Source: a virus (lineage: Duplodnaviria > Heunggongvirae > Uroviricota > Caudoviricetes). Taken from it: a stretch of 64,000 nucleotides of DNA. Position 1 is the stretch's first letter; each line of letters opens with the position of its first letter. Below the pieces are notes generated by a model. The model had not been told where the DNA came from. It ran no database searches and saw nothing but the letters and a program-made list of their open reading frames with translations. The DNA is taken from the IMG/VR virus record IMGVR_UViG_3300043105_000137, one strand, 5' to 3'. A program made the position numbers and the translations under genes. This document shows positions 6,578 to 62,027 of this stretch, piece after piece.

Positions 6578-7351
6578 ATGATTTTCCGAACCCTAAAAGA
6601 AAAATGTGAGTATTACAGAAGTCTGACTGATTATCGACTTCTTCCAAATGGTTACATTATGGTTATGATTGATGGTAAGAATTTTTCCACATTAATCAAA
6701 AACAAATTTGAGAAACCATTTGATGAGCAGTTTATTGAGATGATGAATAAAACTGCGAAGTATCTATGTAAGAATATCCAAAATTGTGTAGGTGCTTTTG
6801 TTCAATCAGATGAAATTAGTCTTGTCATTCGAGACACTAATGAAACCTGTGTACCCTTTGATGGTAGAATGTGTAAACTTTTGTCCATCATTCCCTCTAT
6901 TGCAACATCATACTTCACAAAGTTGATGATTGAATATGAGTTGAAACTTGTCCCCAGATTTGACCACATCTTTGAAATGAAAGATTATGTGTTCGACTGT
7001 AAGGTATGGGTTGTTCCTAATGAGAATGATATGTTAGCTTGGTTCTTATACCGTCAGATAGATTGTATTAAGAACTCAAAGAATCAGTTTTGTCAGACAT
7101 ATCTCTCACACAACACCCTGAGAGGACACAATTCAGATGAACAAGTTAAGTTGTGTTTGGAACAGACTGGAAATGATTGGAATTTGGTTTCTGATGATAA
7201 AAAGTTTGGTCGTTTCATCTACAAATCACAAGTAGTTAAAGTAAACCCAGAAGGACAGGAATATACCAGAAGTGTATGGGATATTGTTTCTTATGAGATT
7301 GCTAACAAAGAAAACAGAGAAGACTTAAAAAATAAATGGTTAAATAAATGA
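6578..7351 (+). CDS. Thg1-like protein (tRNA-His guanylyltransferase / 3'-5' nucleotidyltransferase family)
   Basis: The segments MVMIDGKNFSTL and AFVQSDEISLVIRD align with the Thg1 regions VVRLDGRNFHRF and AYGQSDEYSFVF that contain the catalytic carboxylates. Confidence 0.6.
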   Translation: MIFRTLKEKCEYYRSLTDYRLLPNGYIMVMIDGKNFSTLIKNKFEKPFDEQFIEMMNKTAKYLCKNIQNCVGAFVQSDEISLVIRDTNETCVPFDGRMCKLLSIIPSIATSYFTKLMIEYELKLVPRFDHIFEMKDYVFDCKVWVVPNENDMLAWFLYRQIDCIKNSKNQFCQTYLSHNTLRGHNSDEQVKLCLEQTGNDWNLVSDDKKFGRFIYKSQVVKVNPEGQEYTRSVWDIVSYEIANKENREDLKNKWLNK

Positions 7352-11218: not shown

Positions 11219-12493
11219 ATGAAACTAACATTCAAAGACATAGAAGATAAAGGACTTCTCTTATATCGTTACATAAGGGGTTCACAGGTCTATGGTACCA
11301 ATGTCGAAACAAGTGACGTTGATGAAGGTGGTATCTATATCGCTCCCTCAAATCAACTTCTTGACCTTGGTTTTGATTACCAGAATGAAATCTGTGATGA
11401 GAAACATGATACCTGTTGGTGGGAGATAGGTAAGTTCATGAGACTACTCCTATCATCTAACCCCACTGTATTGGAAGCCCTGTTCGTTCCTGATGATAAG
11501 GTCTTGTATGAACACCCCATCATTACGAATATCAAAAAGTATCGTGACCAATTCATCACCAAACAATGTTTCATGCCTTTTGGTGGTTATGCTGTGTCTC
11601 AGATTAAAAAGGCTCAGGGACAAGATAAGAAAATTCACTGGGACATTGAGAAGATGGTTAGAAAGACTCCCCTCGATTTTTGTTATACTTTTAAGGGACA
11701 GGGTAGTCAAAACATTCAAACTTGGCTCAGTGAACGAGGTCTTGACCAAAGTAACTGTGGATTGGTAAATGTGCCCAATATGCCTAATATGTTTGATGTG
11801 TTCTATGACTTTGGTCAACACATTGAACTAAATGGTATCACAAAAGAATTTTTCACCGACGAAAAAAATCGTAATGACAAATTCTTGAACTATGTATATA
11901 CAACTTTAACATCTAAATTTGACCAGACCGAAATGAAATGGTCTTGGGTAATGAAAAATCTTTATGAAAAAATTAAAACTCCTTTTGGTAAACACTGCGG
12001 TATCATTTCTAATGTGGGTTCAAGTAATGAAATCCGTTTTTCAGAAACATTAAAAGGTTCTACACCTATTTGTTATATGTCTTACAATGAAAATGGTTAT
12101 AGACAACATTGTAAGAAATATCGTGAGTATGAGGATTGGAAGAAAAACCGTAACAAAGCTCGGTATGAAAACAACCTTGAAGGACTCGAAAAAGAAAACT
12201 CAGCGAAGTTCTATGATGCTAAGAATATGTGTCACTGTTTCCGTCTGATTTCTATGGCGATTGAAGTAGCTAAGGGTGAAGGACTTAAACTTGACCGTAG
12301 AGGAATTGATGCTGATTTTCTCCTTGATGTTAGAAATAGAAAATATACTTATGATGAGTTGATGTCTAAACTAACAGAACTTAAATCTCAAATGGATGAA
12401 GAAATATCTAAATCTGTTATTCCTGATGAGATTTCTGTTGATATGGTAAATGACCTCCTGTTATATGCACGAAATAAATTCAACCAGAAATGA
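11219..12493 (+). CDS. Pol-beta-superfamily nucleotidyltransferase
   Basis: The N-terminus carries GSQVYGTNVETSDVDEGG, a match to the GS-x9-13-DxD nucleotidyltransferase signature. Confidence 0.5.
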   Translation: MKLTFKDIEDKGLLLYRYIRGSQVYGTNVETSDVDEGGIYIAPSNQLLDLGFDYQNEICDEKHDTCWWEIGKFMRLLLSSNPTVLEALFVPDDKVLYEHPIITNIKKYRDQFITKQCFMPFGGYAVSQIKKAQGQDKKIHWDIEKMVRKTPLDFCYTFKGQGSQNIQTWLSERGLDQSNCGLVNVPNMPNMFDVFYDFGQHIELNGITKEFFTDEKNRNDKFLNYVYTTLTSKFDQTEMKWSWVMKNLYEKIKTPFGKHCGIISNVGSSNEIRFSETLKGSTPICYMSYNENGYRQHCKKYREYEDWKKNRNKARYENNLEGLEKENSAKFYDAKNMCHCFRLISMAIEVAKGEGLKLDRRGIDADFLLDVRNRKYTYDELMSKLTELKSQMDEEISKSVIPDEISVDMVNDLLLYARNKFNQK

Positions 12494-15718: not shown

Positions 15719-16339
15719 ATGACAGAACAAGATTACATAGAATATGCTGAACAAGCCTTCGACAATATAGTTGATGCTCTTGAACAGATTGAACTTGGAA
15801 AGGTAACAATCCTTACAGGTGACAATGGTTCAGGTAAGTCACTTATTAGAAAAGTCCTTGCTTCTGACCTCAAAAGAAAGAACAATGGTGAGAAGGTGAT
15901 TGTTGCGGATTCTTCTATGGATAAACGAACCGGACTTCATAGTGAAATGGGTGGTGGTGGTGTTTTCCTTCGTGACACATCTTGGGTAGCAACATCAAGT
16001 AACACAATGAATGGAATCAAAGGTTTGTTTAGTTGTTCAGATGACCGTTATATCGTACTTGATGAACCTGAAATTGGTATGAGTGCTTCTATGCAAATGT
16101 CATGGGGTAAATATATCAATGACTACTTGACTGAAAATAAGGACAAATACAAAGGTGTTCTTATCATTTCTCACTCAAAAACTCTGATTAATCAACTCAC
16201 AATCGCTGACAAATTCATTAATATCCAAAAGAAAACCAAAGAAGAATGGATGAATGAAGAACCAGAGATGATTGATATTGAAGAATTTGAGAAAAAATCA
16301 AATGCTCTTTATAAGGTGTTGTCAAATCACCTCAAATAA
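15719..16339 (+). CDS. P-loop ATPase (ABC/AAA_21-like)
   Basis: Walker A is GDNGSGKS and the Walker B / D-loop region reads VLDEPEIGMS. Confidence 0.55.
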   Translation: MTEQDYIEYAEQAFDNIVDALEQIELGKVTILTGDNGSGKSLIRKVLASDLKRKNNGEKVIVADSSMDKRTGLHSEMGGGGVFLRDTSWVATSSNTMNGIKGLFSCSDDRYIVLDEPEIGMSASMQMSWGKYINDYLTENKDKYKGVLIISHSKTLINQLTIADKFINIQKKTKEEWMNEEPEMIDIEEFEKKSNALYKVLSNHLK

Positions 16340-16363
16340 GTCTAACCTCTAATTTCAAATAAA

Positions 16364-16543
16364 ATGGACAAATACGACCTCAAAGAAAAATTGGTTCACC
16401 TACATGAAACAATAGATGCAAAACTTCGTGACCTCATGTATAGTGAATGTGATGAAGAAACAGGTGAGATTCGAGATAGAATTTACATCCGCCTCTCTAA
16501 TGAACTCTATAAACTTGAAGAAGAAATTTATAACATCTATTAA
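16364..16543 (+). CDS. Small hypothetical protein (59 aa)
   Basis: The sequence begins MDKYDLKEKLVHLHETIDAKL... and falls below the track cutoff. Confidence 0.3.
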   Translation: MDKYDLKEKLVHLHETIDAKLRDLMYSECDEETGEIRDRIYIRLSNELYKLEEEIYNIY

Positions 16544-16545
16544 TT

Positions 16546-17025
16546 ATGATTGCTGAAAATTATAAAACTCTCGAACAAGCTATCACCATCCTTGAAATTC
16601 TTGGTGTTCCTCACTATGACATGATGGTGTGTGGAAGTATCGCTCTTGATATTTGTGGTTTGTTCCCTGAAAATAGAGACGCCGCCACTGACATAGACAT
16701 TGTTATCCGAGTAAAACATGATGAAATAGAAGCTTATCGTCGACTTATTCTCTGGGTAAACAATATCCAAGAACGTGTAATGGGACAAGAAACATCACCC
16801 GGAAAACCCATGTCACTATATATGAAAGGTGATAAACACATTGATATATGGTTGGTGGACAAAGAAACTACCGACTTTGGAACAGATATTCAATTCCAAT
16901 CAAAGGATCCTGTTGTGACTGGTTTCTGGGTTGAACGACCTATCGACTGTATCAACAAAAAGAAAGAATACAATCGAACAAAAGACATTAAGGATATTCA
17001 ATCAATCGTAAAAAAAATATTATGA
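16546..17025 (+). CDS. Minimal nucleotidyltransferase (pol-beta fold)
   Basis: The segment CGSIALDICGL...DIDIVIRV matches the GS...DxD nucleotidyltransferase signature. Confidence 0.5.
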   Translation: MIAENYKTLEQAITILEILGVPHYDMMVCGSIALDICGLFPENRDAATDIDIVIRVKHDEIEAYRRLILWVNNIQERVMGQETSPGKPMSLYMKGDKHIDIWLVDKETTDFGTDIQFQSKDPVVTGFWVERPIDCINKKKEYNRTKDIKDIQSIVKKIL

Positions 17026-19931: not shown

Positions 19932-20468
19932 ATGGCAAAATTAAGTGAAGAAATATTTAATGTAGAAAAATATATGGAGTTTAATTCTGAAGCCACCCTT
20001 GAAGAATATCTAAAACACCTCAAACGTATCGAAAAAGATCAAGACATTAAAACTTCATATGCTAATTGTTGGTATGGTAATTTGGTAGGTCGATATTTTG
20101 TTAAGGAAGATATGAAAACTCCTACTTTCCTGTATCGAGAAATATTCAAAGTTGACCATGTTGACTTGGAAAAACAAGAAGCCTACGCTCAAGAATGTTA
20201 CCAAGCTTGTGCTATCTATGACAAGTATGGACACCCCACTGAAGTACAAACAAATATCCAATATGACTGTGAGGAATGGTTGGAGATGTTTGATAATCCT
20301 TGGTTGGGTAATATCGAGAGAAAAAATGACCCTGACTCTGTGATATATGAAATCTCAAAAGATGATTATATTCGTTTGGTCAAGAAGTATTTTCAACCCT
20401 CTCAACTAAACACAATGGAGTTCTTAAATGAAGATATTGACGTAATTGATGAACAACAACATGATTAA
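19932..20468 (+). CDS. Paralog family A member 1
   Basis: Shares the motifs ATLEEYLKHL, NLVGRYFV, FDNPW and E-I-S-x-D-Y with 20811, 21284, 21771 and 22368. Confidence 0.5.
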   Translation: MAKLSEEIFNVEKYMEFNSEATLEEYLKHLKRIEKDQDIKTSYANCWYGNLVGRYFVKEDMKTPTFLYREIFKVDHVDLEKQEAYAQECYQACAIYDKYGHPTEVQTNIQYDCEEWLEMFDNPWLGNIERKNDPDSVIYEISKDDYIRLVKKYFQPSQLNTMEFLNEDIDVIDEQQHD

Positions 20469-20808
20469 AGTACAACATCAAATTTGGAAAGACCGAACCA
20501 CAGATTTGATTTTTGAAGAAGGTGGTACGGTTCACTTGGATATATATGATGAACCAATTTCTTTGATATATCCGGTTAAGTCTTATATCTATTGTTTGTA
20601 TGTAGACGAAGATAAACGTAAACAAGGTATTGCTACAAGACTTCTACAAAAGGCTGAACAGTTGGCTAAGGAAGCAGGTATGACAGAAGTATATCTTGAT
20701 TATAATAAGGTTGTCCCCAATGACATACTTGAATGGTATATTCGTAATGGGTATAAACCTCTGATGGAAAATAGTGATGATACAATAACTTTAGTAAAAC
20801 AATTATAA
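20446..20808 (+). CDS. GNAT-family N-acetyltransferase
   Basis: The acetyl-CoA binding motif reads VDEDKRKQGIATRLLQKAEQLAKEAGMTEVYL. Confidence 0.55.
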   Translation: MMNNNMIKVQHQIWKDRTTDLIFEEGGTVHLDIYDEPISLIYPVKSYIYCLYVDEDKRKQGIATRLLQKAEQLAKEAGMTEVYLDYNKVVPNDILEWYIRNGYKPLMENSDDTITLVKQL

Positions 20809-33000: not shown

Positions 33001-33009
33001 TTATAATGA

Positions 33010-33033
33010 GCCGAGTTCTATTACTTGGCTCTT
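33010..33033 (+). terminator. Hairpin terminator candidate
   Basis: The arms gagccgagt...acttggctc form a 9-bp stem including one G-U pair. Confidence 0.35.
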
Positions 33034-33145: not shown

Positions 33146-33505
33146 ATGAGAAATTACAAAGTAGAAAGGTTGAAGAAAGGTGAAACTATAATCTCCAGAG
33201 AACCGGGAAATTCGATGACACCAATTTTGAAATCCAGAGAACCAGTAATATTAGTTCCCGAAACCGACTGGAATCAATTTAAGAAAGGTGACATCGCTTA
33301 CATTAAAATTCATGGAAACTACTATACTCACTTGGTATATGCTGTTGATAAAGAAAAAGGACTTCAAATAGGAAATAATCATGGACATATACAAGGTTGG
33401 ACAAAGAAAGTTTTCGCACGAGCAATCTTAATCCCCCATGAGTGGACAAACAAAGCCGAAGAATACTTAGAGATATGGAAAACGACCATAAATACTGTAA
33501 ATTGA
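33146..33505 (+). CDS. S24/S26-like peptidase domain protein (LexA/UmuD/signal-peptidase fold)
   Basis: The segment REPGNSMTPIL...KKGDIAYIK matches the G(D/N)SMxP..L and GD core of S24/S26 peptidases. Confidence 0.45.
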   Translation: MRNYKVERLKKGETIISREPGNSMTPILKSREPVILVPETDWNQFKKGDIAYIKIHGNYYTHLVYAVDKEKGLQIGNNHGHIQGWTKKVFARAILIPHEWTNKAEEYLEIWKTTINTVN

Positions 33506-33520
33506 TCGTTGTAAAATATC

Positions 33521-35431
33521 ATGGCTTTTCTTCAAAACAAATTTATAGAAGATTATAAAACCGCCTGTCAAATACAAAAACTATATAAACAAATATATAG
33601 AATTTGTTATAAGATGGGCAACTATTATGTACCAAAAGGTAGTAGAATTGTTACTGTCACTTCAGATGATGGTACAACTCGACAAGTATATAGACCCGTA
33701 TATAACAATAGAATAATTGAGACTGATGGGTGGTATGATGGTAATGAAGATGTAAAAATTCACCCAAATGGTGTTAAATCAATATCTTTAACTCAAAATA
33801 CATATCTTACAATATCACAAATTGAAGATTTATATCTGTATAATAATATTATTCTTGCTAGTTATGATAGTACCACACAAAATGTTCCACAATATTTAAA
33901 AACAGGTGAGCTAAATGAGAAATTCAAATCTATATCTGTCGAAATACAATCATTATTATTCACATTGATTGATTCCGAAGCTCTAACGCCTTTTAGAACA
34001 TCATACACATATTATCCCGTAATGGATGCCAGATACCCCCATGTTCACTGGGCTTATGTTGCGATGAAAAATAATATGAATAAGTCACAAAGACGAATAT
34101 TCTATAACACTTGTATCGGTAAAACACTTCAAGAATATAAACGATTTACCACACACACATTTCCCAGAATATATAAACAACCTTGGGATAGTGGAACTTG
34201 GACACATACAGAGGATGAAACAAATTTGACCGATAGAGATAGAGTAAAAAAGAAAATGTATAAACAATGGTCAAGAACAGATTCAAGTGCTAACTATCTA
34301 ATTCTTAAAGCTGAGGAAGTATTAGAGAAATATGGTTGGCCTGAAGATGACCTTATTAAAACAAGTGAAGTCCCTGTTAGAATTGTTTTCTTTACAGGTG
34401 CGGGTATGAGTGAGGAAAATGGTATCTATACATATAAGAGTGAGGAAGAAGGTAATTTGTGGTATGAGAACCCTATTGATATGATAATGACAAAATCCGG
34501 GTGGAATTCTGACCCTGTTTTCTTGAATAGATTTTTTAATGAATTGAGAGCCAGTTACATTAATAAAAATACCATGCATCTTGGTTATCAAATTATAAAT
34601 AAATTCATTAATGATACTATTGGTGAAGGAACAAATAAACATAATACCTTTGATGTGAAAATCATTACTCAGAATATTGATGACCTACATGACAAAGCAT
34701 TATGTGACTATTTTTTTAGATATTATAACACGTCATATGAACCCCCGATATATGGAATTAGTGATAGTGGTTTTTATAAATATATGAAATTTACCAATAT
34801 TGGAAAATCTATGACAGCGAAAGAATTCATAGATGAACACCTTATACATCTTCATGGTAATTTAATGATTATGTGCAATGAAGATGATGTCGATAATACA
34901 AACTACCATGCTGACTTATCATATTGGACAAAAAGTGTTTCCGAAGATGATAACACAACAACAACAACATTGGCAGGAGTTTCAAAATATAAAAAAGTAA
35001 ATGGTAAGTATGTACAATCCGGAGTTGTAACAATAGACACAACAGAAAGTCATAAAGATTGTGGATTACCAACAGATGCTAAGGTTTGGACTTATTTCCC
35101 AAAAGTCAAACAGACATCAAATGGTAATGCAAAGATGAGACCTTGGATTACTCTATATCACGAAACCGTAAATAGAATGACAGAAGCTATCGAATTGGTT
35201 AGGTCTTGTGACATATTCGTAATGGTGGGAACTTCATTAGAAACTTTCCCCGCAGCCAATTTAATGACTTATGTTCCATCGACTACACCTATCATATATA
35301 TAGACCCAAATCCAAATACTGAAATGATAGAAAAACTAAAGATGACCAGTAGAACAGAAATAGTTAAAACATATGCACCAAATGGTCTTTCTCATGTGTT
35401 AGATGTATATCTTATGGGTTTGAAAATATAG
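33521..35431 (+). CDS. SIR2 (sirtuin-like) domain protein fused to an N-terminal domain of about 280 aa with no recognisable motifs
   Basis: Four sirtuin motifs appear in order: FFTGAGMSEENGI (GAGxS), TQNIDDLH (QNIDxLH), HLHGN (catalytic His) and VMVGTSLETFPAANL (GTSL..P). The canonical Zn-binding cysteine pairs are absent. Confidence 0.7.
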   Translation: MAFLQNKFIEDYKTACQIQKLYKQIYRICYKMGNYYVPKGSRIVTVTSDDGTTRQVYRPVYNNRIIETDGWYDGNEDVKIHPNGVKSISLTQNTYLTISQIEDLYLYNNIILASYDSTTQNVPQYLKTGELNEKFKSISVEIQSLLFTLIDSEALTPFRTSYTYYPVMDARYPHVHWAYVAMKNNMNKSQRRIFYNTCIGKTLQEYKRFTTHTFPRIYKQPWDSGTWTHTEDETNLTDRDRVKKKMYKQWSRTDSSANYLILKAEEVLEKYGWPEDDLIKTSEVPVRIVFFTGAGMSEENGIYTYKSEEEGNLWYENPIDMIMTKSGWNSDPVFLNRFFNELRASYINKNTMHLGYQIINKFINDTIGEGTNKHNTFDVKIITQNIDDLHDKALCDYFFRYYNTSYEPPIYGISDSGFYKYMKFTNIGKSMTAKEFIDEHLIHLHGNLMIMCNEDDVDNTNYHADLSYWTKSVSEDDNTTTTTLAGVSKYKKVNGKYVQSGVVTIDTTESHKDCGLPTDAKVWTYFPKVKQTSNGNAKMRPWITLYHETVNRMTEAIELVRSCDIFVMVGTSLETFPAANLMTYVPSTTPIIYIDPNPNTEMIEKLKMTSRTEIVKTYAPNGLSHVLDVYLMGLKI

Positions 35432-35461
35432 TAATTAACTAAATCTAAATATTTATCAATC

Positions 35462-35497
35462 AACCGAATAGAAGTAAAATCTATTCGGTTTTTTTAT
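35462..35497 (+). terminator. Rho-independent terminator
   Basis: An 11-bp stem aaccgaataga/tctattcggtt is followed by T7. Confidence 0.7.
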
Positions 35498-35608
35498 TTC
35501 ACCACCAGTAGACCGTTTGTTATATCATATAATATATACTCTATGAATACGGATGTTGATCAAATTTTTTTATATTTTAACAGTAAATTAGGGTGAATCA
35601 CTATTTAC

Positions 35609-35630
35609 TTTGTTATCTTTATCATGTAAT
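35609..35630 (+). promoter_or_regulatory. Class-2 conserved motif
   Basis: The sequence is TTTGTTATCTTTATCATGTAA. A related copy, TTTGTTATATCATATAATAT, lies at 35513-35538. Confidence 0.4.
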
Positions 35631-35645
35631 TAATTTAGAAACAAC

Positions 35646-36224
35646 ATGATATTAGGAAGTCATAAATCATTAAGTTATATCACACCTAAGAAATGGTGGA
35701 TGTGGTTTCTTACTCCAATGTATAAACACCAAAGTAAGGACTTAGGACAACAACTCAAAGAAGGTATTAGAGTTCTTGATATTAATGTCCGATTTGATGA
35801 TCATGGTAATGTATCTGTCTGTGATGGGATATATGAAACCAAAAGTTATAATCCCAGAGTATTCACACTACACACTATTAATAAGATAGACAACTTTGGT
35901 GATAAAGATACCGATTATTACATCATTCTCACCCTCGATACAAAAAAGGCGTCATTAATACAAGAAGTGGAATTCATTAAACTATGTAAGGAATTCACAA
36001 GTAGATATTTTAGAAATAATGTTCACTTGCTTGGTTGTAGACGTAAGTTTGATAATGAGAAGGTATATGTTGGTTCACCTGATTTCACTGATATGTCTAT
36101 TATCTCAGCAACAGACCAAAAAGATTCTCGATGGTATGAGAAACTTATCCCTTGGTTCTATGCGAAACGAAAAAACGAAACTATTGAACCCACCTCAAAT
36201 GTAACCCTTTTGGACTTCATTTGA
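35646..36224 (+). CDS. PI-PLC X-domain-like phosphodiesterase (tentative)
   Basis: The segments ILGSHKSLSY and IRVLDINVRFDDHGN resemble the His-containing catalytic segments of the PLC-like phosphodiesterase fold. Confidence 0.3.
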   Translation: MILGSHKSLSYITPKKWWMWFLTPMYKHQSKDLGQQLKEGIRVLDINVRFDDHGNVSVCDGIYETKSYNPRVFTLHTINKIDNFGDKDTDYYIILTLDTKKASLIQEVEFIKLCKEFTSRYFRNNVHLLGCRRKFDNEKVYVGSPDFTDMSIISATDQKDSRWYEKLIPWFYAKRKNETIEPTSNVTLLDFI

Positions 36225-36530: not shown

Positions 36531-36863
36531 ATGAAAGGTTCAGTAATCGTAAATGGTCAGGTAATGACACAAGAAAAATATAAACAAGCAGTCATTACTA
36601 CCCTCGAAGAAAACAATAACAAATGGATGACTTGTGACGAAATGGTCGAGTGGGCATCTCACCACAACTTATGTGAACGTAAGAACGCATATCGAAAGGC
36701 AATGTCTCACCCCCTCTGGAAAATCATCTCTAACATGATGGAGGAAAAAAATCCGGTCATCACTCGAATGTCAAACATCAACAATGTTTTCATCTACAAG
36801 TTGAAAGTATCCAATGTCTATATTGACAAAAATGGTCGTCGTTGGGTACGTCGTCAAAAATAG
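36531..36863 (+). CDS. Hypothetical protein, paralog of 37892-38233
   Basis: Shares VNGQ..T...Y..AV...L..N.N.WMT..E...WAS...L.E.KNA.R.A.SHPLWKIIS.MM with 37892. Confidence 0.5.
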   Translation: MKGSVIVNGQVMTQEKYKQAVITTLEENNNKWMTCDEMVEWASHHNLCERKNAYRKAMSHPLWKIISNMMEEKNPVITRMSNINNVFIYKLKVSNVYIDKNGRRWVRRQK

Positions 36864-37379: not shown

Positions 37380-37452
37380 AACTCCGTAGCTCAGTTGGTA
37401 GAGCGTCTGGTTAAACACTGGAAGGTCGTGGGTTCGAGTCCCATCGGAGTTA
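37380..37452 (+). tRNA. tRNA with a non-canonical anticodon loop UUAAACA (nominal anticodon AAA with C37)
   Basis: The acceptor stem aactccg/cggagtt, the D-arm gctcagttggtagagc and the T-arm gtggg-ttcgagt-cccat are all canonical. The anticodon stem tctgg/ctgga contains two G-U pairs. Confidence 0.55.
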
Positions 37453-37471
37453 CTTTTTCATTTGATGCTTT

Positions 37472-37613: not shown

Positions 37614-37686
37614 GGCTTCGTAGCTCAGTTGGTAGAGCAACTGACTCTTAATCAGTGGGTCGTGGGTTCGAGCCCCACCGGAGTCA
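37614..37686 (+). tRNA. tRNA-Lys (anticodon CTT)
   Basis: The acceptor stem ggcttcg/cggagtc contains G-U pairs. The anticodon stem-loop is actga-cucuuaa-tcagt and the T-arm gtggg-ttcgagc-cccac. Confidence 0.75.
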
Positions 37687-37747
37687 CAGAGTTTTTTACT
37701 AATTTTTTTAAATTATTCTTATAGAATTTAAATTTTTACACACAAAT

Positions 37748-37776: not shown

Positions 37777-37851
37777 GACTTCGTACGTCTCAGCTGGTAG
37801 AGCGTCTGGTTAAACACTGGAAGGTCGTGGGTTCGATCCCCACCGAAGTCA
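37777..37851 (+). tRNA. Second tRNA with the UUAAACA anticodon loop, with an irregular D-arm
   Basis: The acceptor stem gacttcg/cgaagtc pairs perfectly. The anticodon arm is identical to the one at 37380. The D-region carries 3 extra nt (tacgtctcagctggtagagc) and the T-arm is gtggg-ttcgatc-cccac. Confidence 0.45.
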
Positions 37852-37891: not shown

Positions 37892-38233
37892 ATGGCACGC
37901 AAAGGAAACGTGAAAGTAAATGGTCGTACTTTGACCACAACAGATTACTCAGACGCAGTTGTAGAAGCACTCCGTCACAATGGTAATAACTGGATGACCG
38001 TCAATCAAATCATTGCATGGGCATCTGACAACAAACTGGTTGAGAAGAAGAATGCTCCCCGTCAAGCAGTTTCTCACCCCCTCTGGAAAATCATCTCAAT
38101 GATGATGTATGACACCCAGTACAAAGGTGTTGACCACAATCTTGAACGTCGTGTTGTTCATGGTAAGTATGCCTACCGTTTGAAGAACGCAGACTATGCT
38201 TACATTAATGGTAATGAAATCATCGACCTTTAA
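37892..38233 (+). CDS. Hypothetical protein, paralog of 36531-36863
   Basis: Carries the shared SHPLWKIIS motif. Confidence 0.5.
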   Translation: MARKGNVKVNGRTLTTTDYSDAVVEALRHNGNNWMTVNQIIAWASDNKLVEKKNAPRQAVSHPLWKIISMMMYDTQYKGVDHNLERRVVHGKYAYRLKNADYAYINGNEIIDL

Positions 38234-38813: not shown

Positions 38814-39448
38814 AAGATATAAATTTTAAGTTAGTCTTTTCAGGAAAGTTATCTTCTTGGACTGACGTTTTTAATATAATCGAACAAGCTGAAGATAACC
38901 ATGATGTTCGTTTCCTAATTAAAGTGGATGGAACAACATATAGTTATTTTTGGTGGAATGAATATACTAAATCTTGGAATATGTTTTTTTCGTATTTCAA
39001 GAATTATGAACTGAAATCAACAACAAAATGGCCTTATTATTGGTGGCCTGATGCCGTAGATGTTTATATGGTAACTGACCCGACGATTTTTATTCGTGAA
39101 CTTCAAAACGATTTACGACATGAGTCTTTCCAAAAATTAACTTATCCTGACTCTAAACTGAGTGTAATGGTGGATATGATTAAACCTATACTTGGCTCAG
39201 TGGTTGAAGTTAAAAATGAGAAAGTATTGTTGTTGGGATTGTCTTATACATTTGATGACTATTATTACTACTACCTGACACAAGATAATAAAATCGGTTT
39301 CACATCTTCGGTAGGAAAAATAGTTCAACATTATGACCAAACACGAGCTGAGTTATTGAAGGAGGACATTGAAACAAAACAACTTGTCCAGAACCTTAGA
39401 TGGGAACATTTCAAAGACGCTCCGGAAATAGAAATAATACACGTTTAA
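38810..39448 (+). CDS. Hypothetical protein
   Basis: A 212-aa Trp/Tyr-rich ORF. Confidence 0.45.
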   Translation: MKDINFKLVFSGKLSSWTDVFNIIEQAEDNHDVRFLIKVDGTTYSYFWWNEYTKSWNMFFSYFKNYELKSTTKWPYYWWPDAVDVYMVTDPTIFIRELQNDLRHESFQKLTYPDSKLSVMVDMIKPILGSVVEVKNEKVLLLGLSYTFDDYYYYYLTQDNKIGFTSSVGKIVQHYDQTRAELLKEDIETKQLVQNLRWEHFKDAPEIEIIHV

Positions 39449-39450
39449 TT

Positions 39451-40311
39451 ATGATAACATTTGTTTTAATTATCTTAGCAATTTTAATACTTCCTTATAT
39501 CCTTCATTTTTTGGGATTGGAAATATCAGAGTATTACAGAAAGAAATATAATGATCGTGAACTGGTCAAGGAATTCAAAAACTATCGAGGTTATATTGGA
39601 TTTTATAACAACCCCAGTCTTATGATTTATTATACACATCATGGAGTTTATACCGACTGTAAATGGGCTCACAAAATTCTAATCTATTTTGGTGGTTGTG
39701 TCTTGTGTTGGCAATGGGGTAATGACTTCAATGAGAATACAGGTCTTGACTATGCTTCTATTTCATACTCTTGGGGTTGGGATTCTATCAATGGTGAAAA
39801 ATGGTGGACTGATTTTAGATGGCGTAACCGTACTTTTTCTAACCCTTTCAAAGCAACCCACTATGATAACTCTTGGATAATCGACTTTAATAATAAGACG
39901 TTAGTTGAGAAAAGACAATTAGATGACATTAATGATTATCCTCTTGTTGATGTTAGATTGAATACCACCTACCGTATGAAGAATGACACAGTTCAAGATG
40001 TTTCCCGTATCCGTTGGTGGATTGAACAATGGGAATGGTCAGTGCCCTTCCTCAATAAAATAGGTCTTGGTAATTATTGTAAGAAAATAAATGTTGACCT
40101 CGAATTCCAATCTGACACTGAACTTGGCGTCAATCGGGATTCTTGGAAGGGTGGTGTAATGGGTGCCACTGTTAGAATTAGTGATGAACCCGAACTTCTC
40201 AAACTTTATCTCGACATCGTTAAACATCAGAAATTGGAGAAGATACCTCTACTCAGAACGGCTATCAAAAACCGTATCGACTATTTTATGAATGAAGAAA
40301 AAAAATATTGA
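39451..40311 (+). CDS. Membrane-anchored hypothetical protein
   Basis: The start was chosen at MITFVLIILAILILPYILHFLG, a transmembrane helix. The track start at 39400 overlaps the upstream gene. Confidence 0.4.
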   Translation: MITFVLIILAILILPYILHFLGLEISEYYRKKYNDRELVKEFKNYRGYIGFYNNPSLMIYYTHHGVYTDCKWAHKILIYFGGCVLCWQWGNDFNENTGLDYASISYSWGWDSINGEKWWTDFRWRNRTFSNPFKATHYDNSWIIDFNNKTLVEKRQLDDINDYPLVDVRLNTTYRMKNDTVQDVSRIRWWIEQWEWSVPFLNKIGLGNYCKKINVDLEFQSDTELGVNRDSWKGGVMGATVRISDEPELLKLYLDIVKHQKLEKIPLLRTAIKNRIDYFMNEEKKY

Positions 40312-60799: not shown

Positions 60800-61099
60800 T
60801 TTCCATCTGTGGTCTTTTCTTCGCACGACTTTTCGCCAAGTTTATGACCACCCTTATTTTGACCATCATTACATATGCTGACATAATCAGACCTTAAACT
60901 AATCATTACACAGTATGCTATTATTGTAAAATGTGCTAACCTAACTTTCTGAATATGTCACACAATCCCTTGGATTTCTTCTGAGGGATTGTTTTTTTGT
61001 ATTCTGACATTTTGTTACTATTTCCTGATTTTTACTTTCATTTTGACACCTCCTGAAGAAAAACTCAGGGGATTTTTTATAAGCATGTAAGTAAATCCC

Positions 61100-61830
61100 C
61101 TCTTTTACTTTCATTTTGTCATCTTAACCCAGTCCCCAGACTCAGCTGACCAGAACTCAACCCATATAACTGTCCATCCCCCTTCCTCAACTTAGCCCTC
61201 TTTACCATTCCTCTCCCTTTCCCTCACGATACGAATGACGAAACTACTACTCATCCACCCCCATATCTACCATACCGGATATATTAACCCCCAGATATAC
61301 ACCCCAGACTTCCAGATACCAGATTCCTCAACCCAGTAAATAACCCCCAGATACATATTAACCCTATTTCCTCTATTTTACCCTTTTTACTATACGAACG
61401 ATTTTACGATTTTTTCCATTTTTACCCCTTTTTTACTTAGCTAATTTTAAGACACATTTTTTCACTATTTTCCATGTTTTTCCCCTTTCTTACTTTTTAC
61501 CTCTTTTTACACTTTTTACCTCTTTTTTACTTAGCTTATTTTATTCCCCCTTTTTACCATATTTTACACTTTTTTGGAATTCTTGGAAATATGTGGAAAT
61601 CTGTGAAAACTACATTTCCGGCCTGTCCTGAGTTGGAGGGGTGGTTTTTCAAAGGAGTAAAATAAGCTAATTTCTGAGGGGGTAAAATAAGCTAATTTTG
61701 GGGTATTTTTAGGATATGTAAAAAAGACTAATTTTGGGGTATTTTTGGCCTATTTTGGGAGGGGGGTAAAATTAGCTAAAATTAGGGTTTTTTAGGGGGT
61801 ATTCAGAATCACTCAAAGAAGGCTAGAACT
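61100..61830. repeat. Repeat-rich, strand-skew-switching non-coding region: candidate replication origin or genome terminus
   Basis: The left part is C/T-rich with repeated AACCCCCAGATA(c/t)A units. At least 12 TTTTTAC(C) iterons follow. After about 61560 the + strand becomes G-rich, with repeated GTAAAATAAGCTAATTT and CTAATTTTGGGGTATTTTT units. Confidence 0.4.
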
Positions 61831-62027
61831 TGGCTCAGTAAATAAAAATAAATAAAAAATAAATTAAAATAAATTAAAAATAAATCGAAACAAATCTGAC
61901 AAAAATGAGTTAAAAAATTGGGTATATATTTTTGAATTTAATTAGCTCAGTATAAATAGATTACAAAAAAATTCGATAATAAAATATATAGATAAAAAAG
62001 ACATAATTTTACATTAATATTACAGAA

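Follow-up and report, generated by a model that had tools for sequence, protein, structure and literature searches.

What might a sirtuin fused to a family-specific N-terminal module do for a phage? The question is raised by a 64,000-nucleotide stretch of the Caudoviricetes virus record IMGVR_UViG_3300043105_000137 (the window), where an open reading frame (ORF) at 33521-35431 on the + strand encodes a 636-aa protein consisting of such a module followed by a canonical sirtuin domain that lacks the zinc (Zn) ribbon. An earlier account made from the letters alone (the sequence-only reading) had described this ORF as a SIR2-domain fusion between a gene for an S24-like peptidase and one for a phospholipase C (PLC)-like phosphodiesterase. 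All three ORFs are present on the + strand, at 33146-33505 (119 aa), 33521-35431 and 35646-36224 (192 aa), and the observation as a whole was confirmed. Its interpretation was supported in part: the sirtuin fusion stands, whereas a link to the SIR2 proteins of antiphage defence and a functional system of three genes do not. The roles proposed for phage sirtuins, namely deacylation, ADP-ribosylation and RNA repair, rest on computational prediction. The N-terminal module should carry substrate specificity, and the fusion thus offers a handle on what phage sirtuins act on.

The sirtuin catalytic domain, including a helix before beta1, spans residues 256-636 (34286-35431, + strand). Its match to the Pfam SIR2 profile (PF02146), which inserts break into two stretches, scores 56.6 bits (cutoff 24; E=4.3e-15) and places it inside the SIR2 family. 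The motifs listed earlier occur in the expected order: GAGMS (293-297), QNIDDLH (384-390), the HG with its catalytic His445 (codon 34853-34855), GTS (570-572) and a conserved proline, P577. G293, G295, S297, Q384, N385, D387, H445, G446, G570 and S572 are invariant across 13 family clusters and E. coli CobB. The CobB alignment also keeps H390, R540-P541, E548, the Thr between G570 and S572, and P577; its reference sequence was taken from a chimeric "phage" record whose region is really the lolCDE-nagK-cobB-potD chromosome. The Arg of the class III YxxR motif, Arg343 in our protein, does not vary within the family. The Tyr of this motif is replaced by Phe339 in our protein, as in four other long members and the short sirtuin P0017, and is retained in the other eight. 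The Zn ribbon, normally two CxxC pairs, is gone, as the sequence-only reading had said: no CxxC lies between HG and RP. The segment that replaces it (residues 453-536; 34877-35128, + strand) holds a low-confidence beta-hairpin insert specific to this protein at about residues 469-505. Loss of the ribbon is common to many short cellular and phage relatives, including annotated deacylases of Halomonas and Bacteroidetes, and therefore does not bar membership of a Zn-less branch; it had already been noted for KVP40-type Vibrio phage sirtuins (PMC5107563). On the reading favoured below, the catalytic core comes from the Zn-less branch of the CobB/SIRT5-like (class III) sirtuins.

The three-dimensional fold agrees with this assignment. 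In an AlphaFold2 model built from a 75-sequence alignment (a single-sequence model gave a predicted local distance difference test score, pLDDT, of just 33.5), the sirtuin fold is present and superposes on CobB in Foldseek with a template modelling score of 0.78. The best sequence matches among solved structures are deacylases of the CobB/SIRT5 type. The structure ranking is headed by deacylases (Sir2Af1 18.0, PfSir2A 17.6, SIRT2 15.4, SIRT1 15.3, SIRT4 15.0, Hst2 14.6 and SIRT6 13.1), followed by the ADP-ribosylating SirTM (12.1) and by the defence SIR2 proteins ThsA (9.9), SIR2-HerA (9.6 and 7.5) and Avs5 (7.0-7.6). None of the three proteins of the locus matched a PADLOC defence model, even at E<=1. 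Together, the PADLOC result and the structure ranking indicate a housekeeping-type sirtuin domain rather than a defence-type SIR2, and the earlier framing around ThsA, DSR and SIR2-HerA does not hold. Our protein shares with CobB and SIRT5 the catalytic and nicotinamide adenine dinucleotide (NAD+)-binding residues and the YxxR Arg, in addition to the fold. It differs from them in lacking the Zn ribbon, in an insert of about 50 aa before the catalytic His and a segment of about 95 aa after it, in the Phe of the YxxR motif, in having YK for FR and YHE for FGE, in its N-terminal module of about 255 aa, and in being encoded by a phage.

An exhaustive HMMER search of 1.84 billion representatives placed the protein in a family of fusions. 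Twelve further clusters (P0007-P0016, P0018 and P0019; 441-624 aa) were recovered at E values of 1e-30 to 1e-52, and their matches extend N-terminal of the sirtuin core. A word-indexed search found almost nothing, and when the family alignment served as its query it recovered short sirtuins of the canonical kind but not the long family, which only the exhaustive search detected. All members lie on phage-like contigs with small genes on the same strand. In a rough neighbour-joining tree of the core, the long family shares one clade with certain short sirtuins, namely P0017 and those that accompany the long sirtuin in two loci, L092 and L093. Short Zn-less proteins form the sister group of this clade, CobB branches next, and our protein has the longest branch. 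The short Zn-less phage sirtuins of the Vibrio KVP40/phiSt2 type and of huge gut phages, the clade described by Iyer et al., share with the family their phage origin, the missing Zn ribbon and core motifs such as HLHGxLxxxC...YH...KRMRP. They are only 220-260 aa long, unlike the fusion, and have neither the N-terminal module nor the insert after QNIDDLH. A phage sirtuin and its Zn-less state were already known; the N-terminal module, a hypervariable insert and rapid divergence are new.

The N-terminal module comprises residues 1-255 (33521-34285, + strand) and is predicted to be all-alpha, apart from a beta insert at about residues 32-95 that is specific to this protein. A fused domain of about 280 aa had been proposed; the fusion is borne out, with this somewhat shorter extent. 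Its conserved helices are modelled with pLDDT values of 84-91. F8, D11, D73, H174, H176, R191, Y195, P215, Y218, E265, Y271 and G272 are invariant in the N-terminal region of the family, which carries the motifs (F/Y)PHVHWAY and FP(K/R)xY(H/K)RxW. The module is basic in nine of the 13 members, and many of its invariant residues are His, Arg or Tyr. No relatives of it were found by Pfam searches of 12 family members at E<=5, by a profile search of the PDB, in BFVD or in the word-indexed protein database, nor were any found outside the fusion family in IMG/VR, the GTDB representative genomes or the JGI metagenomes. A profile hidden Markov model of the module run against 9,870 ORFs (1.75 Mb of fetched loci) hit long sirtuins only, with no free-standing copy. 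By eye, and without profiles, 2H phosphoesterase, HD and HEPN domains appear to be misfits: the module has one HxH, no HxT/S pair, no HD doublet and no Rx4-6H. Residues 1-31 are conserved, which makes the ATG at 33521 the true start, although gene callers had settled on M32 (P0001, 605 aa). P0006, a 176-aa product from a 1.6-kb JGI contig, is 82% identical to our protein over residues 1-152, after which all similarity ends. It probably represents this gene in a related phage, altered by a frameshift or by mis-assembly, and it supports the same start.

Two features of the gene concern its variability. First, the segment between QNxDxLH and HLHG, about 10 aa in ordinary sirtuins, is hypervariable in the family (10-197 aa) and amounts to about 50 aa here (insert 1, residues 391-440; 34691-34840, + strand), with one Cys. 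In six members this segment is strongly acidic (isoelectric point ~4.1) and has CxCxC clusters. Second, the sirtuin gene has diverged much more quickly than its syntenic neighbours. Two loci are syntenic with the window: L095, a contig of an NCBI metagenome-assembled genome, and L092. Between L095 and the window, identities are 59% for an SLT protein, 66% for OmpA, 66% for DPBB, 41% for the PLC-like protein and 27% for the sirtuin; between L092 and the window they are 63% for DPBB, 79% for the 119-aa protein and 29% for the sirtuin. Thus, no other gene of the block diverges as fast as the sirtuin, whose active site nevertheless stays fixed. Fast divergence around a fixed active site is the pattern expected of a host-targeting effector.

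The Cys clusters themselves are a feature of relatives. P0008, P0009, P0010, P0012, P0014, P0015 and P0018 carry acidic inserts with metallothionein-like clusters such as CECGCDSDCDCGCC, and none occurs in the window protein; the similar cluster of P0018 sits at a different insertion point. These inserts may bind metal in place of the lost Zn ribbon, or they may be disordered and act as mimics.

We tentatively favour the view that the gene encodes an active sirtuin of the canonical type, which would act as a target-specific protein deacylase and not as a defence NADase. Deacylation is favoured because the protein has the fold and the residue set of deacylases, because its nearest cellular relatives are deacylases too, and because most members keep the FGE loop. 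The fold, the intact catalytic residues, the family membership, the phage origin and the fusion architecture are established here; the enzymatic activity, the substrate class and the role of the N-terminal module are what we infer. By analogy with established sirtuin chemistry, the carbonyl oxygen of an acyl-lysine in a specific host or phage protein would attack C1' of the NAD+ ribose, held by Q384, N385 and D387, and nicotinamide would leave. His445 would then activate a ribose hydroxyl, resolving the intermediate into free lysine and O-acyl-ADP-ribose. The family-specific, alpha-helical N-terminal module most likely selects the substrate. The invariant Arg343 suggests an acidic acyl group, for example succinyl, malonyl or glutaryl, and the fast divergence together with the hypervariable surface inserts suggests a target involved in phage-host conflict.

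Several observations weigh against this view. The cofactor loop of our protein has Y305-K306 in place of FR, and the peptide-binding loop has Y546-H547-E548 in place of FGE. Most family members keep FR and FGE, but P0016 and P0019 show similar changes (YY; YDE and YEE), and a canonical short sirtuin adjoins both, which hints that long copies may have left standard deacyl-peptide binding. The best NCBIfam CobB model gives 78 bits, far short of its cutoff of 243. The invariant Asp, His, Arg and Tyr residues of the N-terminal module are closer in character to a catalytic or ligand-binding site than to a simple docking surface. The short phage sirtuins nearest to the clade adjoin genes for RNA repair and ADP-ribose processing, not for protein modification. 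Finally, no biochemically characterised phage sirtuin was found in the searchable literature.

Some of these points lead to a different chemistry, the main rival, which we consider possible but rather unlikely: the sirtuin could use NAD+ to strip the 2'-phosphate from repaired or cleaved RNA, yielding ADP-ribose 1''-2'' cyclic phosphate. The substrate might be a tRNA cut by a host anticodon nuclease, with the N-terminal module, and perhaps the PLC-like phosphodiesterase, supplying RNA binding or a phosphoesterase step. In the Tpt1/KptA reaction, an oxygen nucleophile attacks C1'' of NAD+, nicotinamide is lost and the ribose 2''-OH resolves the adduct; the chemistry is parallel to that of sirtuins and the fold is unrelated, so that Tpt1/KptA is a functional analogue only. 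To our knowledge, such 2'-phosphate removal has never been demonstrated for a sirtuin. Arg343 might bind phosphate as readily as carboxylate, and both the mostly basic, His-, Arg- and Tyr-rich N-terminal module and the altered FGE and FR motifs would be consistent with an RNA substrate. In two other fusions, P0003 and P0004, an NT5C-like HAD phosphatase (PF06941) of about 150 aa, and thus a phosphoesterase, takes the same position on a Zn-less CobB-like core; there the N-terminal domain is recognisable, whereas ours is all-alpha and has no detectable relatives.

Gene neighbourhoods bear on RNA repair in both directions. Iyer et al. 2022 (PMC9503650) predicted KptA/Tpt1-like RNA repair for most viral sirtuins from their linkage to 2H, Nudix, cREC, HAD, calcineurin-like and RNA-ligase genes, with a minority acting as ADP-ribosyltransferases in toxin-antitoxin or HerA systems. 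Around the nearest short sirtuins our data agree: 14 IMG/VR sirtuins that are 40-50% identical to the short members of the clade have 125 ORFs within 3 kb, among them YqeY (five times), the RNA-repair HAD family HAD_SAK_2, Nudix and Metallophos (three times each), and single instances of NADAR, ADP-ribosylglycohydrolase, NAD synthase and Tad3. The HAD_SAK, Nudix, calcineurin-like, YqeY and NADAR genes often found at short phage sirtuin loci are, however, absent around the long family. In nine long-family loci and the 64-kb window, no Nudix, HAD_SAK, 2H, calcineurin-like or RNA-ligase gene adjoins the sirtuin, and the same is true of cREC, PIN and kinase genes in the window and the loci of eight relatives. 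The phage does have functions of the RNA or tRNA repair type, as its RlaP and Thg1-like genes show, though these sit 21-27 kb from the sirtuin. Its tRNA genes lie 2 kb downstream of the sirtuin, and just downstream in L095. The PLC-like gene is likewise retained downstream in L095, but it stands behind a terminator, is absent from the other loci and does not conserve a second catalytic His. In addition, the sirtuins of T5-type phages are less similar to the clade (32%, E=2e-16) than CobB is (39%, E=3e-35).

Transfer of ADP-ribose is a less probable alternative, and we regard it as unlikely. As a mono-ADP-ribosyltransferase, the protein would move ADP-ribose from NAD+ onto a host protein or nucleic acid chosen by the N-terminal module and so hijack host functions; the Alt and Mod enzymes of phage T4, and SirTM, are the models for such an activity. 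The substitutions in the FGE and FR loops could favour transfer over deacylation, and the rapid divergence of the gene would fit. Membership of the SirTM type itself was rejected, given the catalytic His445 and the lack of a macrodomain in Pfam scans across the window. SirTM (class M) has Gln for the catalytic His, a linked macrodomain and a conserved partner Arg (PMC4518038). It also keeps its Zn domain, with the macrodomain linked or fused, in contrast to our Zn-less protein, which has no macrodomain partner.

A further alternative, less probable again, is that the N-terminal module does more than target the enzyme passively and is itself a second centre, for catalysis or for sensing a ligand; D11, D73, H174, H176, R191, Y195, Y218 and E265 are its invariant residues, and it occupies the position of the HAD phosphatase in related sirtuins. 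The protein would then combine two enzymatic steps in one chain, an arrangement not described so far. If so, it might couple RNA end-healing or cyclic-phosphate opening to NAD+-dependent removal of the 2'-phosphate, countering host nucleases that cut tRNA or other RNA. Alternatively, it might erase acidic aminoacyl-lysine marks made by R2K ATP-grasp and CofE-like ligases, genes for which lie near two family members.

These ligase genes form part of a wider arrangement at related loci. In L092 (7730-13027) and L093 (193-2740), a canonical short sirtuin follows directly downstream of the long one, and in L092 two more genes come after it, one for a CofE-like F420 gamma-glutamyl ligase (E=6e-35) and one for an R2K ATP-grasp protein; R2K also occurs in L088 (28-3404). 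Peptide or aminoacyl ligases beside class III-like sirtuins may constitute a writer/eraser system for acidic acyl-lysine. A second sirtuin, R2K and CofE-like genes were sought in the window, and none was found.

An NADase or anti-defence decoy, depleting NAD+ or sequestering a defence signal in the manner of the antiphage effectors ThsA, DSR, SIR2-HerA and Avs5, deserves very little credence: the Rossmann-type NAD+-binding domain of the SIR2 superfamily is shared with them, and the phage has a counter-defence gene (an Acb3-like CBASS inhibitor at 39400-40311), but the PADLOC result, the Pfam family and the structure ranking largely refute it, and we found neither a match to defence-system SIR2 models nor an association with SLOG, TIR, HerA or STAND partners. 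Among the roles suggested earlier, deacylation is favoured, and the NADase and the decoy are effectively excluded by the same three results.

Does the sirtuin work together with its neighbours? The sequence-only reading had placed it in an operon bounded by terminators. Both hairpins are there: a terminator-like one at the 5' boundary (33008-33031, + strand; 9-bp stem with 5 GC pairs; minimum free energy -15.3 kcal/mol, z=-5.4, none of 200 shuffles as stable) and an intrinsic-terminator-like one at the 3' boundary (35462-35490, + strand; 11-bp stem, T-run, tail TTTTTTATTT; z=-5.7 against shuffles). What they enclose is a two-gene unit in which the 119-aa gene is co-transcribed with the sirtuin gene, at a spacing of 15 nt; the PLC-like gene lies beyond the terminator, as a separate transcription unit. 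Around the two-gene unit, Rfam detected tRNAs only and no regulatory RNA.

The upstream gene (33146-33505, + strand) encodes a soluble 119-aa domain of the LexA/signal-peptidase clan (S24/S26-like). Alone, it scores 15.8 bits against PF00717, below the cutoff of 23.3, with a weak match to archaeal-type signal peptidases as well; all 15 of the homologues tested match PF00717 at E<=1 (best 1.8e-9). The motif GNSM(T/L)P, corresponding to the GxSMxP of the Ser nucleophile (here Ser23), is invariant or nearly so in 34 homologues. The position of the LexA/UmuD general-base Lys is occupied by an invariant His62, which aligns with the catalytic His of the signal peptidase SEC11C; the weak archaeal-type match fits this. 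The family thus has the Ser motif of Peptidase S24 but not its Ser/Lys dyad. In IMG/VR the 119-aa protein has 32 homologues at 40-87% identity, most of them on contigs of 100-410 kb. No sirtuin, PLC-like or other window gene lies within 6 kb of any of them, the 87%-identical one included, so the adjacency to the sirtuin is specific to this phage. In L092 the gene lies 2.7 kb upstream of the sirtuin with six genes between, and it is absent from the 21-kb L095 locus.

The downstream gene (35646-36224, + strand) encodes a 192-aa protein with a domain resembling the phosphatidylinositol-specific PLC (PI-PLC) X domain, at 29.4 bits against PF00388 (cutoff 23.1). Its N-terminal GSHKS motif lines up with the GTHD motif of Listeria PI-PLC, which holds the catalytic His (E=0.19), and GSH(K/N)S is common to it and its 41%-identical L095 homologue. 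The candidate second catalytic residue, His53, is not kept in that homologue, which has no Pfam match of its own, and the protein, at only 192 aa, may be short for a complete TIM barrel. The PI-PLC-like assignment made earlier is upheld by the profile match and the first catalytic His. No relatives of the 192-aa protein were found in IMG/VR, and a PLC-like gene follows the sirtuin only in the window and L095, being absent from the loci of seven of the eight relatives.

That peptidase, sirtuin and phosphodiesterase form one functional three-gene system is accordingly most improbable. The tight spacing of the first two genes between terminators, and the PLC-like gene following the sirtuin in both the window and L095, could be taken to support it, but these two loci are syntenic and their common gene order is not independent evidence. 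With the homologues of the 119-aa gene away from any sirtuin or PLC-like gene, and the PLC-like gene behind a terminator and missing elsewhere, the system was rejected on comparative context. The apparent arrangement is a local accident of gene order.

Sirtuins are widespread in phage collections. A tblastn search with a short member of the clade found them in 1,010 phage records; phages of the T5-like, Klebsiella, Vibrio, Campylobacter and Streptomyces groups are represented, as are huge gut phages. IMG/VR contributed 120 sirtuin loci. Such counts include some host genes. For example, the "phage" record ON470619.1 is actually E. coli lolCDE-nagK-cobB-potD chromosome with an integrase nearby, and CAKLQH020000011.1 is the gcvH-cobB region of Acinetobacter. 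Two "Escherichia phage" matches (H7 and H8) proved to be chromosomal E. coli cobB in a chimeric record, and therefore provide no phage evidence.

All plausible genes of the window lie on one strand, and it is clearly part of a large phage. The identical sirtuin protein occurs on 13 metagenomic contigs, the longest of 326 kb, and comparison of the window at the DNA level found no close annotated phage. Recognisable genes encode a Dda-like helicase, a Dam-type methyltransferase, an HNH endonuclease, an IMPDH/GMP reductase, an SPFH protein, a thymidine kinase, a GH108 endolysin, a Thg1-like enzyme of the tRNA-His guanylyltransferase family (6578-7348, + strand; E=3e-29) and an RlaP "RNA repair pathway" nucleotidyltransferase (11219-12493, + strand; E=3e-19). 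A small GNAT acetyltransferase (PF00583, E=6e-10; 20446-20805, + strand) lies 13 kb upstream of the sirtuin; the two make a possible writer/eraser pair, with no evidence of linkage.

ARAGORN called six tRNAs in the window and Rfam a seventh. Three form a cluster on the + strand (37380-37453, 37614-37687 and 37777-37851), 1.2 kb past the PLC-like gene and 2 kb past the sirtuin: by ARAGORN, a tRNA-Phe with an unusual AAA anticodon and a tRNA-Lys(CTT), the third being called by Rfam only (39.8 bits). L095 has a tRNA-Lys(TTT) at the equivalent place. On either side of the cluster lie two paralogous genes of 110 and 113 aa (36531-36863 and 37892-38233, + strand), which share a single L095 homologue, 50-54% identical to them; a CoiA nuclease-like Pfam family weakly matches one of the two (E=3e-4). 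The Acb3-like gene noted above (39400-40311, + strand) matches the Pfam family "CBASS inhibitor Acb3" at 30.7 bits against a cutoff of 27 (E=3.5e-7) and is kept at the same relative position in L095 (21278 to the end), which suggests that this phage arm carries counter-defence genes. L095 also has an IS605 OrfB/TnpB-like (Cas12f-related) gene on the opposite strand (15964-16704, - strand) that is absent from the window. Finally, a 1.2-kb stretch of the window at 60800-62027 is free of ORFs, with a pyrimidine-rich + strand (GC skew -0.22) and short A/T-rich tandem repeats, and is followed at 62-64 kb by an extreme positive GC skew of +0.59; it may mark the boundary of a module, or have a regulatory role, or contain an origin.

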